From the NCBI RefSeq assembly GCF_030384885.1, contig NZ_CP128613.1: 64,000 nt of DNA, one strand, 5' to 3'. Source of the DNA: Escherichia coli (GTDB lineage Bacteria > Pseudomonadota > Gammaproteobacteria > Enterobacterales > Enterobacteriaceae). This document shows, piece after piece, positions 5,880-20,409 of this stretch. The translations under genes were made by a program, and so were the position numbers. Within the stretch, counting starts at the first letter, position 1. The number at the start of each line of letters is the position of its first letter. The notes beneath the pieces are model-generated. The model saw nothing but the letters and a program-made list of their open reading frames with translations. It made no database searches and had not been told where the DNA came from.

Positions 5880-8800
5880 ATGGGAACCACCACCATGGGG
5901 GTTAAGCTGGACGACGCGACGCGTGAACGCATTAAGTCTGCCGCGACACGTATCGATCGCACACCGCACTGGTTAATTAAGCAGGCGATTTTTTCTTATC
6001 TTGAACAACTGGAAAACAGCGATACTCTGCCGGAGCTACCTGCGCTGCTTTCTGGCGCGGCCAATGAGAGCGATGAAGTACCGAATCCGGCAGAGGAACC
6101 ACACCAGCCATTCCTCGACTTTGCCGAGCAAATTTTGCCACAGTCGGTTTCCCGTGCGGCTATCACCGCCGCCTATCGCCGCCCGGAAACCGAAGCGGTT
6201 TCTATGCTGCTGGAACAAGCTCGCCTGCCGCAGCCGGTTGCTGAACAGGCGCATAAACTGGCGTATCAACTGGCCGATAAACTGCGTAATCAAAAAAATG
6301 CCAGTGGTCGCGCAGGCATGGTTCAGGGATTATTGCAGGAGTTTTCGCTGTCATCGCAGGAAGGCGTGGCGCTGATGTGTCTGGCGGAAGCACTATTGCG
6401 TATTCCCGACAAAGCCACCCGTGATGCGTTAATACGCGACAAAATCAGCAACGGTAACTGGCAGTCACATATTGGTCGTAGCCCGTCGCTGTTTGTTAAT
6501 GCCGCCACCTGGGGGCTTCTCTTTACCGGCAAACTGGTTTCTACCCATAACGAAGCCAGCCTCTCCCGTTCGCTGAATCGCATTATCGGTAAGAGTGGCG
6601 AACCGCTAATCCGCAAAGGTGTGGATATGGCGATGCGTCTGATGGGCGAGCAGTTCGTCACTGGTGAAACCATCGCGGAAGCGTTAGCCAATGCCCGCAA
6701 GCTGGAAGAGAAAGGTTTCCGTTACTCCTACGATATGCTGGGCGAAGCCGCACTGACCGCAGCGGACGCGCAGGCATATATGGTTTCCTATCAGCAGGCG
6801 ATTCACGCTATTGGTAAAGCCTCCAATGGTCGTGGCATCTATGAAGGTCCAGGCATTTCAATCAAGCTGTCGGCGCTGCATCCGCGCTACAGCCGCGCCC
6901 AGTACGATCGGTTAATGGAAGAGCTTTACCCGCGTCTGAAATCATTAACCTTGCTGGCGCGTCAGTACGATATTGGTATTAACATTGATGCCGAAGAGGC
7001 CGATCGTCTGGAGATCTCCCTCGATCTGTTGGAAAAGCTTTGTTTCGAGCCTGAACTGGCAGGCTGGAACGGCATCGGTTTTGTTATTCAGGCTTATCAA
7101 AAACGCTGCCCGCTGGTGATCGATTACCTGATTGATCTCGCCACCCGCAGCCGTCGTCGTCTGATGATTCGCCTGGTGAAAGGCGCGTACTGGGATAGTG
7201 AAATCAAACGTGCGCAAATGGACGGCCTTGAAGGTTATCCGGTTTATACCCGCAAGGTGTATACCGATGTTTCTTATCTCGCTTGTGCGAAAAAGCTGCT
7301 GGCGGTGCCAAATCTCATTTACCCGCAGTTTGCAACGCACAACGCCCACACGCTGGCGGCGATTTATCAACTGGCAGGTCAAAACTACTATCCGGGTCAG
7401 TACGAGTTCCAGTGCCTGCATGGTATGGGCGAGCCACTGTATGAGCAGGTCACCGGGAAAGTTGCCGACGGCAAACTTAACCGTCCGTGTCGTATTTATG
7501 CTCCGGTCGGTACCCATGAAACACTGCTGGCATATCTGGTGCGTCGCCTGCTGGAAAACGGTGCTAACACCTCGTTTGTTAACCGTATTGCTGATACCTC
7601 TTTGCCACTGGATGAACTGGTTGCCGATCCAGTCACTGCAGTAGAAAAACTGGCGCAACAGGAAGGGCAAACTGGATTACCCCATCCGAAAATTCCCCTG
7701 CCGCGCGATCTTTACGGTCACGGGCGCGACAACTCGGCAGGGCTGGATCTCGCCAATGAACACCGACTGGCCTCGCTCTCCTCAGCCCTGCTCAACAGTG
7801 CACTGCAAAAATGGCAGGCCTTGCCAATGCTGGAACAACCGGTCGCGGCTGGTGAAATGTCACCCGTTATCAACCCGGCGGAACCGAAAGATATTGTGGG
7901 CTATGTGCGTGAAGCCACGCCACGTGAAGTAGAACAGGCGCTGGAAAGTGCAGTTAATAACGCGCCAATCTGGTTTGCCACGCCTCCGGCCGAACGCGCG
8001 GCGATTTTGCATCGCGCTGCCGTACTGATGGAAAGTCAGATGCAGCAACTGATTGGTATTCTGGTACGTGAGGCCGGAAAAACCTTCAGTAACGCCATTG
8101 CCGAAGTGCGTGAAGCCGTCGATTTTCTCCACTACTACGCGGGACAGGTGCGGGATGATTTCGCTAACGAAACCCACCGTCCATTAGGGCCTGTGGTGTG
8201 TATCAGCCCGTGGAATTTCCCGCTGGCGATTTTCACCGGGCAAATCGCTGCCGCACTGGCGGCAGGTAACAGCGTACTGGCAAAACCGGCAGAACAAACG
8301 CCGCTGATTGCCGCACAAGGGATTGCCATTTTGCTGGAAGCGGGTGTACCGCCAGGCGTGGTGCAGTTGTTGCCCGGTCAGGGTGAAACCGTAGGCGCGC
8401 AACTGACGGGTGATGATCGCGTGCGCGGGGTGATGTTTACCGGATCAACCGAAGTCGCTACGTTACTGCAACGCAATATCGCCAGCCGCCTGGACGCTCA
8501 GGGTCGCCCAATTCCACTCATTGCGGAAACCGGCGGCATGAACGCGATGATTGTCGATTCTTCAGCACTGACCGAACAAGTCGTAATAGATGTGCTGGCC
8601 TCGGCCTTCGACAGTGCGGGTCAGCGTTGTTCGGCACTGCGCGTGCTGTGCCTGCAAGATGAGATTGCCGACCACACGTTGAAAATGCTGCGCGGCGCAA
8701 TGGCCGAATGCCGGATGGGTAATCCGGGTCGCCTGACCACCGATATCGGTCCGGTGATTGATGGCGAAGCGAAAGCCAATATCGAGCGCCATATTCAGAC

Positions 8801-16861: not shown

Positions 16862-17476
<615 letters not shown>

Positions 17477-17496: not shown

Positions 17497-17724
17497 ATGC
17501 CAACTCAAGAAGCGAAAGCTCATCACGTCGGTGAATGGGCATCTCTGCGCAATACGTCGCCGGAAATAGCCGAGGCCATTTTCGAAGTCGCCGGGTACGA
17601 CGAAAAAATGGCGGAAAAGATTTGGGAAGAAGGTAGCGATGAAGTGTTAGTCAAAGCCTTTGCTAAGACCGATAAAGATTCGCTTTTTTGGGGCGAACAG
17701 ACCATCGAACGTAAAAACGTTTAA
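17497..17724 (+). CDS. yccJ: Small protein YccJ
   Basis: 75 aa ORF 20 bp downstream of wrbA. Confidence 0.9.
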
Positions 17725-17732
17725 TCCTGAAC

Positions 17733-17759
17733 CTCCCCCGTAGTGAACGGGGGAGTTTT
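17733..17759. terminator. Intrinsic terminator hairpin after yccJ
   Basis: ctcccccg-tagtgaa-cgggggag followed by TTTTC. Confidence 0.7.
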
Positions 17760-18259
17760 CGATTATTCATTGACCAACGTCTCATGTCCTGTTATTACTG
17801 TGAGATATTCAATCACGTTATCAAATAAAAAAATCGATATCATTGCGGTAAGCTTGTTATTGATTATAAATATGGGTAATAAGCGATATCCAGCATGAAT
17901 TTGATTGTACAGGGTATTTCCTATATAGCCATTGGTTAAATCTTGAAGATAAGATACCTCCGGCTGAAAAATCCATCCCGGCAATGAAGGATGTGATATT
18001 TTCGTAATTCTCTTGCAGAATAAACAACCCTGGATACGCTCTGAATACAAGGAAATTTTCCAATAAATTATTTATTCATCAATACTCCCCGGCGAGGATC
18101 ATCAAAATATCTCATTATCTTTTAAAACTGCCCAGCCCGTTATAACGGACGTTATCTGGCGCACGCTGAAGTGGGCATGATACTCACTTTCATTAAAATG
18201 CTCGACATGATTTGCTAATCGCTTAGCTAGATAATTGACGTTCAGTCTGTGCCAAATTT

Positions 18260-18619
18260 TTAGCGAAAAATAGCAAATTTAAGCCGGGAATTTATCAAAG
18301 CATCCTCATTTACTTCACCATGAACAATAAAGTCACGCATAAACTGCAGGTGTTTAATTAATAAAATCCATTCACTTTCAGTAAGATAGTTTTTCCCACG
18401 CAGATTATAATACAGAGATTTGATTAATGGGATCTTCTGCTTATGGCGCTTTGACCGCGCTGAGCACAATATTTGTTCTATCAGGCCAAGCGTCCCTTTC
18501 TGACGCAACCAGCACCGGAGTTCAGACTGCGCGCTAATGCCGCGAGCCACCGACAAATGTATTTGGGTAAGCAATGCGTATAAACCTAATAAAAACGCGT
18601 CGTGATAATACCGCTTCAT
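18260..18619 (-). CDS. Hypothetical basic protein, 119 aa, second gene of the inserted cassette
   Basis: ORF with GAGGTG RBS a few nt before the ATG, 12 bp after the upstream ORF stop; K+R-rich (net charge about +10); no family recognised. Confidence 0.55.
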   Translation of the reverse strand: MKRYYHDAFLLGLYALLTQIHLSVARGISAQSELRCWLRQKGTLGLIEQILCSARSKRHKQKIPLIKSLYYNLRGKNYLTESEWILLIKHLQFMRDFIVHGEVNEDALINSRLKFAIFR

Positions 18620-18631
18620 TACCCACCTCTG

Positions 18632-18970
18632 TTATCGTAATTTTTTAAACAAATAATCATATAAAATTTCGGCAATGAATTCTGCATGTTCACGTCGCAC
18701 AATGACATTCATAACGTAATATTGCGCAGCAATTTCATTGATAAAATGTTCAGGCAGTATGAATACGCGTGCATAAGCCGAGTATATTTCCAGTATTTCA
18801 TTTGAGATGTTTTCAAGATCAACGCAATAATTTGTCACATCATAAAAAAGATTAGCGTATTTTTTATTAATTATGCTAAGGCATATAAATGGGGCATTTA
18901 ATTTTTCACACAATTGCCAGTGCGTTCTTTCATTTTCTCCCTTCCATGTATACTTCATTTTGTCAGCCAT
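18632..18970 (-). CDS. Hypothetical protein, first gene of the inserted cassette (112 aa from ATG 18970; 108 aa from ATG 18958; 122 aa from GTG 19000)
   Basis: ORF in roughly 30-35% GC DNA; start codon ambiguous; no family recognised. Confidence 0.5.
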   Translation of the reverse strand: MADKMKYTWKGENERTHWQLCEKLNAPFICLSIINKKYANLFYDVTNYCVDLENISNEILEIYSAYARVFILPEHFINEIAAQYYVMNVIVRREHAEFIAEILYDYLFKKLR

Positions 18971-19105
18971 CCTTTGATTTACGCGTCTGAAGTTTACCAC
19001 TGTGTCTGGGGTAAACCATGCGTTCTATGGTAAAAATTATACGAGATGTGGCGCTGCGTAATATTCTGCTCCCTCAATATATTTCTGGTGAATATGTTCC
19101 AGGTT

Positions 19106-19138
19106 AATTGGGAAGATCTGCATGTGATCTTCCCAATT
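19106..19138. repeat. Perfect 13 bp inverted repeat with 7 nt loop
   Basis: aattgggaagatc-tgcatgt-gatcttcccaatt, between agp and the cassette. Confidence 0.6.
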
Positions 19139-19167
19139 TTATGACTACAAAATGTCAATAGCCGGGT

Positions 19168-20409
19168 TTATTTCACCGCTTCATTCAACACGCTATCAAA
19201 CTTATCCATTGGGCAGAAACCATCAGCGTCTATCGGGCAGCCGGTTAATTCCAGCGTCACGCGCTGAGCCGGAGCCTGCAACGTTAACGCATCAGCATTA
19301 CGCAACTGTTCCGCACTCTGGTACACATATTCAATTTTCATCAAATCGCGATTAGCTTTGCTGTTATGCCAACGCTGGAAAACGATTTTGCCGCCAATCG
19401 GCGTGCGTTCGTTCTGGTCATGCAACTGATACGGTTTGAAATCCAGTGCCGTTAACAGAGAGGCAATGTTTGAGTCGTGCCCCACCAGCACCGTGATTTT
19501 CGGTGCACTGGCGCGATCTGTCACCAGCGCTTTGTCGATATAACTGACCAGTGGTTTCGCAACATTGCGCGCCACTTCCGGTGAGGTAAACAGGCTATCC
19601 TGGTAACCGTTTTTCAGCTTCGACAACACTTTCCACTGTTGGTCAGATTTGATTTCTCCCCACGCCACCTGATCCATCGGGAAACCTTCGTAGTATTGCA
19701 AAGTAAACGCATCTACCAGCGAGTTGCCGACTTTCAGCGGCCCGGAAACGCCCGGTTCTTGTTGATACTTCGCGCTAAAGGTGTTTTTGCCATCTACAAG
19801 CGAACACTGTTGCTTCTCTTTACAGGCAGGAGAATCTTTATAGTTAACGATTTTTTCCAGTAGCTTGTAGCTGTCGGTAAGCTGGAGTTTGCCGAGCTCT
19901 TTCTCCATTGCCGCCACCGCCTGTTCACTGAATGCGGCGGAATCATCGGTGATCACCGGGTTAAAGGTTGGGTCCATGGTGCCCATTTTTTCCTGGTGGT
20001 GGACTGGAATGTCACACCCAGGGAATGCGCCAGTAATAAAGAACTGCGCGGTTGCGACGGTACGTTGCAGGCTGTTGGCATAGGCATAAACGGTGTCCGG
20101 CGGCGGGCATTCCCCCGAATTCACCATCCCCTGCTCTGCCAGCCACTCACGCATATAGTGGCCCATATACACTTCCAGCACACCGCCTTTGGTGGTGAGC
20201 TGCCCACCGGGGACGTCCCATTCTGGCCATTTATTCGGTGTGGATTGTTCCAGCACACTGCCATTGTTCGCCAGCGGCGCACGTAAGTTATGGCGGCTCA
20301 TTATGAGCACTTGCTGCAACTGATAGCCTTCCGGTACGGTTTGTGCCTGAGCATTTGAAGCGAGTAAAACTATCCCTGCCACAGCTGCGGCGATTAGCGT
20401 TTTGTTCAT
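19168..20409 (-). CDS. agp: Periplasmic glucose-1-phosphatase Agp
   Basis: 413 aa from [10 protein letters not shown]; histidine acid phosphatase motif RHNLRAP. Confidence 0.95.

Follow-up and report, generated by a model that had tools for sequence, protein, structure and literature searches.

We have analyzed a 64,000-nucleotide stretch of Escherichia coli DNA (the window), which contains an AT-rich arm at positions 17761-18259. The arm is very probably the decayed distal third of a minus-strand array of three genes, which we term A, B and C, that encode orphan immunity proteins of the Rhs type with no toxin beside them, and that are decaying singly. Positions 18102-18259 encode the last 53 residues of B, positions 17763-18079 are a pseudogene of C, and the two open reading frames of the arm that begin with TTG are fragments of C. 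The orphan-immunity identity of A, B and C we infer from the gene neighborhood of their homologues in other bacteria.

The arm contains the tail of B and a pseudogene of C

The gene order in this part of the window is rutG, ymdF, wrbA (16880-17476), yccJ (17497-17724), an AT-rich block, agp (19168-20409, minus strand) and a yccE-like gene. The block (about 17760-19167) has a size of about 1.4 kb between the yccJ hairpin and the agp stop codon, and a GC content of 37% compared with 51% for the window. For the arm the corresponding values are 36.5% and 51.4%, so that the earlier note was right to call it AT-rich. A terminator scan places the intrinsic terminator of yccJ at 17733-17759 on the plus strand (hairpin 17733-17755 followed by a T-tract), and this forms the left edge of the block, which is absent in K-12. 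In a K-12-type strain the yccJ-agp intergenic region is just 37 bp, comprising essentially one homologous terminator hairpin followed directly by the agp stop codon. Within the block all the genes of the array lie on one strand, separated by gaps of 12 nt and 22 nt. Gene A (18632-18958, minus strand, 108 aa) is intact, as judged from the open reading frames and annotation and from comparison of loci. The region upstream of A as far as the agp stop (18959-19167, minus strand) is conserved across all the loci aligned, and presumably contains the promoter of the array. A promoter scan gave counts no higher than expected from shuffled sequences, and no promoter could be assigned to the array. This region also includes a perfect 13-nt inverted repeat, AATTGGGAAGATC / GATCTTCCCAATT, with a 7-nt loop (19106-19138). 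Located between the stop codon of agp and gene A and conserved in every carrier, it probably serves as the terminator of agp in the haplotype of the window; in K-12 a single hairpin serves yccJ and agp jointly.

In the window the open reading frame of B (18260-18619, minus strand, present in the ORF list and in RefSeq) encodes 119 aa and ends at a premature TAA (18262-18260). Alignment with five other loci shows that the truncation results from deletion of a single base, a G on the minus strand between 18281 and 18280. Beyond the premature stop the sequence continues in an open but displaced frame through 53 codons (codons 120-172) to a TGA at 18104-18102. This tail of 158 bp (18102-18259, minus strand) occupies about one third of the arm, and was overlooked in the earlier note. 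Repair of the deletion in silico restores a frame of 172 codons, and B is intact at 172 aa in strains N96 and MFDS1022581 and in E. coli GCA_024754905.1. A homologue in Proteus mirabilis aligns with residues 1-159 of B, extending beyond the point of the frameshift, and thus the 172-aa protein is the native form. The same deletion is found in strain 2013C-4282. Over the block MFDS1022581 and the window share 99.7% identity, and in the region from the arm to B they differ by four substitutions and the deleted base, which is the sole indel there. Since so close a relative retains the base, the lesion in B is evidently very recent. Strain N3 has a separate 1-bp deletion in B, 11 nt away, that leads to the same TAA and also to a 119-aa product. 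The occurrence of two independent deletions so close together (within 18269-18281 of the window) may be due to chance in a T/A-rich stretch, or may indicate a local mutational hot spot. RefSeq lists the 119-aa stump as an ordinary hypothetical protein (WP_000833428.1, strain 2013C-4282) and not as a pseudogene, while the pseudogene of C is unannotated.

The remainder of the arm is accounted for by C (17763-18079, minus strand), identified by alignment with the intact copies of 104-105 aa in N3 and in two further loci, L005 and that of GCA_024754905.1. According to the earlier note the arm contained no credible gene beginning with ATG. The ORF list confirms that none is intact, but there is an ATG at 18079-18077 with a good Shine-Dalgarno sequence, GGGGAG (18085-18090, minus strand), placed 5 nt before it. 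Reading from this ATG is stopped early by the first of three lesions, a 2-bp deletion in an A-run (AAAAA to AAA), so that the sequence at 18068-18079 on the minus strand is ATG AAT AAA TAA, i.e. M-N-K-stop after codon 3. At this site GCA_024754905.1, N3 and N96 read ATGAATAAAAATAAT. The second lesion is a CAA to TAA nonsense mutation in codon 75 (17857-17859, minus strand), common to N96 and the MFDS strain. The third is a run of seven T at 17827-17833 (minus strand) where the intact copies have six, and this +1 frameshift places the last 22 codons of C in the second of the TTG frames. Undoing both indels restores a frame of 105 codons that is broken solely by the nonsense codon 75 and ends at the natural stop TAA (17765-17763).

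The two overlapping minus-strand TTG frames noted previously (17763-18050 and 17857-18063) are indeed present. The frame at 17857-18063 corresponds to codons 7-74 of C and the end of the other to codons 84-105, and an HMM of the C family matches the window at 18075-17860 with E = 2.9e-24. A conserved, translated protein from one of these frames had been named as an outcome that would speak against the earlier proposal. The frames are conserved protein-coding sequence, but as fragments of a gene that starts with ATG. C is intact in N3 (annotated as WP_042004103.1), in L004 (the locus of GCA_024754905.1) and L005, and in L006, L007 and L009, whereas the MFDS strain has all three lesions of the window and N96 has the nonsense mutation in codon 75. 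The lesions in C are thus shared more widely than the deletion in B, indicating that C died first and B most recently. For both genes there are intact orthologues at the same locus in relatives, together with lesions that can be identified and repaired, as expected for pseudogenes. In this the arm shows no difference from ordinary pseudogenes, which likewise contain indels and nonsense mutations and have intact orthologues in close relatives, and whose lesions can be ordered by the strains that share them. Of the four lesions, three in C and one in B, all but one are indels, and two of these indels fall in A or T runs. With B frameshifted and C a pseudogene, what was earlier taken to be a two-gene cassette is itself damaged, and A is the only gene in the window that remains intact.

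C is a real gene. Among its intact copies dN/dS = 0.10-0.39, and a profile built from four C sequences and searched with HMMER against 1.84 billion representative proteins found 72 relatives at E ≤ 1e-3, nearly all of about 100 aa. The family conforms to the pattern F.xRPGMY..Y..v.aFI.GMD...g..L.GF..WL...W..LI...FLF..v.EFL. An AlphaFold2 model calculated from the family alignment is a five-helix bundle (pLDDT 90.8, pTM 0.83). Comparison of A, B and C with Pfam, NCBIfam, PADLOC, PHROGs and the PDB gave nothing significant, a Pfam scan of 48 members of the C family gave no match, and the sequence clusters of the family are named 'hypothetical protein' throughout. A tblastn search of plasmid and phage records with C gave no match. 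Word-indexed searches with A, B and C were too insensitive, returning just Escherichia proteins of at least 80% identity, and distant relatives were reached through the full HMMER scan and by tblastn against plasmid records.

A decayed third gene of a larger element was one of the possibilities raised in the earlier note, and this was correct, given the intact 104-105-aa versions in E. coli N3 and GCA_024754905.1. The check that it proposed, TBLASTX or BLASTN for intact homologues, was answered by homology searches and alignments that found both B and C intact in relatives. As to the origin of the arm, its other suggestions fit the data poorly. It is highly improbable that the arm contains a structured non-coding RNA. 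While the predicted fold of the minus strand is slightly more stable than those of shuffled sequences (z = −2.15), the plus strand gives z = −1.54, and the covariance search that had been suggested gave no match in Rfam at E ≤ 1. Furthermore the arm can be aligned by codons with protein genes that are under purifying selection, and its indels lie in homopolymer runs, as expected from the decay of coding sequence. AT-rich tracts of such a kind are typical targets of H-NS, and the GC content of the arm would suit a silencer or a pure spacer. Yet both halves of the arm are homologous to intact open reading frames of other strains, and an origin with no coding ancestry is hardly credible. H-NS may well bind to the arm, but this would follow from its composition and would not define what the sequence is. 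The TTG frames are open for 68 and 95 codons, and could be imagined to be translated as small proteins in their own right, one or both. We regard this as very unlikely, because they lack Shine-Dalgarno sequences and overlap each other, they jointly rebuild one 105-codon gene when three lesions are repaired, and the lesions determine their limits, which vary between strains. There is similarly little chance that programmed frameshifting or transcriptional slippage bypasses the lesion in B so that the full-length protein is made. The two independent deletions in the window and N3 lie near a T-run and the downstream frame is open, but we identified neither a slippery heptamer nor a stimulatory structure, the missing base is present in the 99.7%-identical MFDS strain, and an open downstream frame is what would be expected of a young mutation. 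The arm is best read as the remains of two protein-coding genes.

Decay and probable loss of the array in Escherichia

The 1.4-kb block was found by megablast in five of 5426 complete E. coli genomes. The agp-yccJ site of E. coli GCA_024754905.1 holds the full array with all three genes intact, A (108 aa), B (172 aa) and C (105 aa). In E. albertii (L010) this site has intact copies of A and B and a copy of C with two stop codons. One set of E. fergusonii-type loci (L012-L015) has A and B intact with C frameshifted, and another (L006/L007) has A and C intact with B deleted apart from its last ~30 nt. A is intact wherever the sequence examined covers the whole gene. B has been broken three times independently, by two frameshifts and one deletion, and at least three groups that diverged separately have a broken C. 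The window, 2013C-4282 and MFDS have the same lesions in C, N96 shares with them the nonsense mutation in codon 75, and the gene is also a pseudogene in E. albertii and one E. fergusonii-type group. The lineages therefore keep different subsets of the genes, i.e. A+C, A+B, A only or all three, and this matrix of states speaks for genes that work independently of one another and are subject to weak or episodic selection. The E. albertii locus L010 also carries an IS element (5928-7299; HTH and rve transposase, 457 aa) between the C pseudogene and yccJ. The same element is present in a second contig (L011), where the transposase is split.

The block had been described as an insertion. It is absent from the K-12-type strain, but an insertion is doubtful given that E. 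albertii and E. fergusonii have the same block in the same position, with divergence that tracks that of the flanking sequences. In comparison with E. albertii, identity amounts to 88-92% for the flanks, 92.5% for A, 83-89% for B and 79% for C, so that the divergence of A and B roughly follows that of their surroundings. At the block in the window we found no integrase, transposase or flanking repeats, such repeats as exist being short and at the level expected by chance. Taking together the shared site in three species, the divergence tracking the flanks and the lack of mobile features, it is more likely that the block is ancestral to Escherichia and was lost from most E. coli than that it was inserted recently.

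Two other features of the locus were observed. agp in the window is 94.1% identical to that of K-12, compared with 99.2-99.6% for wrbA and yccJ only ~1.5 kb away. The array is thus linked to a divergent agp haplotype, which hints at old recombination or introgression, and recombination may have contributed to the history of the block. In addition, the plus-strand sequence TTATT ends both gene C (17763-17767) and agp (19168-19172). Deletion between these microhomologies would generate almost exactly the empty site of K-12, which is a speculative mechanism for loss of the block.

Homologues of A, B and C adjacent to Rhs C-termini

Homologues of C outside Escherichia were found in seven genomic contexts. 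In five of these (L017/L018, L019/L020, L021/L022, L023 and L028, the exceptions being L016 and L026/L027) the gene upstream terminates 1-40 nt before the C homologue and ends in the same domain of ~90 aa. In Streptomyces roseofulvus the carrier of this domain is a protein of 1205 aa. The domain has the motif GC..[CV]A..I...GW..H.VVV..GRVYD..T...G....YK..W.....I.FGF, examples being L018 1-330 and L032 4944-5264.

The association was also examined in the reverse direction, by scanning one genome per species with the toxin domain alone. This gave 20 loci (L029-L048) from Streptomyces, Myxococcus, Cellvibrio, Roseateles, Rhodococcus, Planctomycetota and others. In 19 of the 20 the C-family HMM detects a gene directly after the domain in the same orientation, and one locus has two tandem pairs. 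In the species scanned the domain was found solely in Actinomycetota, Myxococcota, Planctomycetota, a few Proteobacteria and unassigned metagenomic contigs, with no occurrence in Enterobacteria. In six of the eight carriers tested it is located downstream of the Rhs-associated core TIGR03696, and it is therefore an Rhs C-terminal toxin domain. Since the C homologues directly follow this domain, the C family are candidate immunity proteins. Across 23 distinct copies of the domain the G-C, H, VVV, GRVYD and terminal F.F elements are at least 90% conserved. The conserved Cys, His and Asp suggest a cysteine hydrolase of Cys-His-Asp type. No match to the domain was found in Pfam, NCBIfam or the sequences of the PDB. 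In two of the Rhs proteins, from Rhodococcus (L033) and Streptomyces (L035), there are weak intein/HINT-like matches at residues ~1509-1655, between the core and the toxin domain, and this segment may be a pre-toxin autoproteolytic module.

A and B have homologues in comparable positions. A homologue of A with 54% identity is encoded on a plasmid of Phytobacter diazotrophicus, where it begins 3 nt past a 384-aa Rhs C-terminal fragment (RHS_core/TIGR03696), in an array that comprises an AHH toxin fragment, an Imm43 immunity gene and a TNT toxin fragment. The Proteus mirabilis homologue of B (29% identity, BLASTP E = 1e-12) directly follows the C-terminus of a PAAR/YD-repeat Rhs protein. The Rhs partners in Phytobacter and Proteus both carry TIGR03696 or RHS_core. 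A and B are thus putative immunity proteins by virtue of one genomic context each, with B related to its homologue by 29% identity. The Proteus sequence comes from NZ_OL790811.1 (L024, 7569-8480), a 4-Mb record that is filed in PLSDB as a 'plasmid' but is evidently a chromosome. In this record the Rhs C-terminus and the B-like gene form one open frame with no stop codon between them, and the body of the rhs gene is separated from this C-terminus. Errors of assembly may account for these features, or the fusion may be genuine.

The toxin-domain HMM gave no hit in the 64-kb window, nor at any of the Escherichia loci examined, and the array, whose neighbors are agp and yccJ, is therefore toxin-less.

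Proposed orphan immunity and related systems

If A, B and C are orphan immunity genes, each product would bind and neutralize one incoming toxin delivered by a competitor. With no toxin gene at the locus, each gene would be useful solely while the matching aggressor is met, and an unmatched gene would drift and decay independently of its neighbors. In the strain of the window A would be the sole gene still able to work, and for the purposes of annotation the cassette is a remnant with one working gene. An alternative is that A, B and C together form a cooperative toxin-antitoxin or anti-phage system that has been disabled in the window. The close spacing of the genes on one strand of an AT-rich island, with gaps of 12 nt and 22 nt, and the small size and unknown family of their products would be in keeping with such a system, but we consider it unlikely. 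There is no match in PADLOC, the lineages keep different subsets of the genes in a way that obligate partners would not, and the homologues of A, B and C occur apart from one another, each beside a different Rhs toxin C-terminus.

Cognate immunity genes occupy the slot immediately after an Rhs C-terminus, and orphan examples of such genes (RhsI/CdiI) are well documented, being known from E. coli EC93 and EC869 and from Dickeya dadantii (PMC3150448). Orphan modules usually consist of pairs of toxin C-terminal fragment and immunity gene located downstream of a full rhs or cdi locus (PMC3150448). The A-B-C array resembles these in that it encodes small proteins whose homologues are found just downstream of a variable toxin C-terminus that follows the Rhs core (PxxxxDPxGL; TIGR03696), that the copies lack a functional toxin partner, and that several unrelated immunity genes occur in one array. 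It differs in that the genes are not separated by toxin fragments and the locus has neither rhs nor cdi, and the array lies between two housekeeping genes in a position that is syntenic in three Escherichia species. A search of the literature on the yccJ-agp locus found no paper describing the island.

The 'acquired interbacterial defense' clusters of the Bacteroidales also contain several unrelated immunity genes without cognate toxins, presumably directed against attack by other bacteria; these immunity-only clusters are mobile and associated with recombinases. The A-B-C array similarly holds unrelated immunity-type genes together in the absence of toxins. Unlike the Bacteroidales clusters it has no integrase, transposase or flanking repeats, and its inheritance looks vertical with recurrent loss.

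These results supply names and a testable function for three orphan open reading frames of Escherichia, and reveal an unannotated Rhs C-terminal toxin domain that is tightly linked to an immunity family (19 of 20 loci). The copies in Escherichia exhibit stepwise, lineage-specific loss, of C and then B with A kept, and provide material for studying how orphan immunity genes are retained or lost. A more extended interpretation, which we put forward tentatively and which may well not hold, is that C and its partner are a previously unannotated Rhs toxin/immunity pair and that the array is an ancestral, vertically inherited 'shield' of Escherichia made up solely of immunity genes that is now being lost. 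Were this so, the locus would constitute a natural time series of the decay of immunity genes once the aggressor has disappeared, with the toxins now mainly in Actinomycetota and Myxococcota, and the toxin would be a Cys-His-Asp enzyme that has no relative in Pfam, NCBIfam or the PDB. Polymorphic-toxin families are numerous and orphan immunity genes well known. The C family and its Cys/His/Asp partner are absent from Pfam, NCBIfam, PADLOC and PHROGs, yet they are of a well-known kind, and specialists in polymorphic toxins will not be surprised by them.

In the AlphaFold database the structural neighbors of C are uncharacterized proteins of 100-140 aa, the closest being a Salmonella protein with 45% identity. 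A likeness to the CdiI-type domains of Pfam/InterPro comes through one of these neighbors, the Streptomyces protein A0A918FW20 (TM 0.71/0.63, 26% identity), which is named 'CdiI immunity protein domain-containing protein'.
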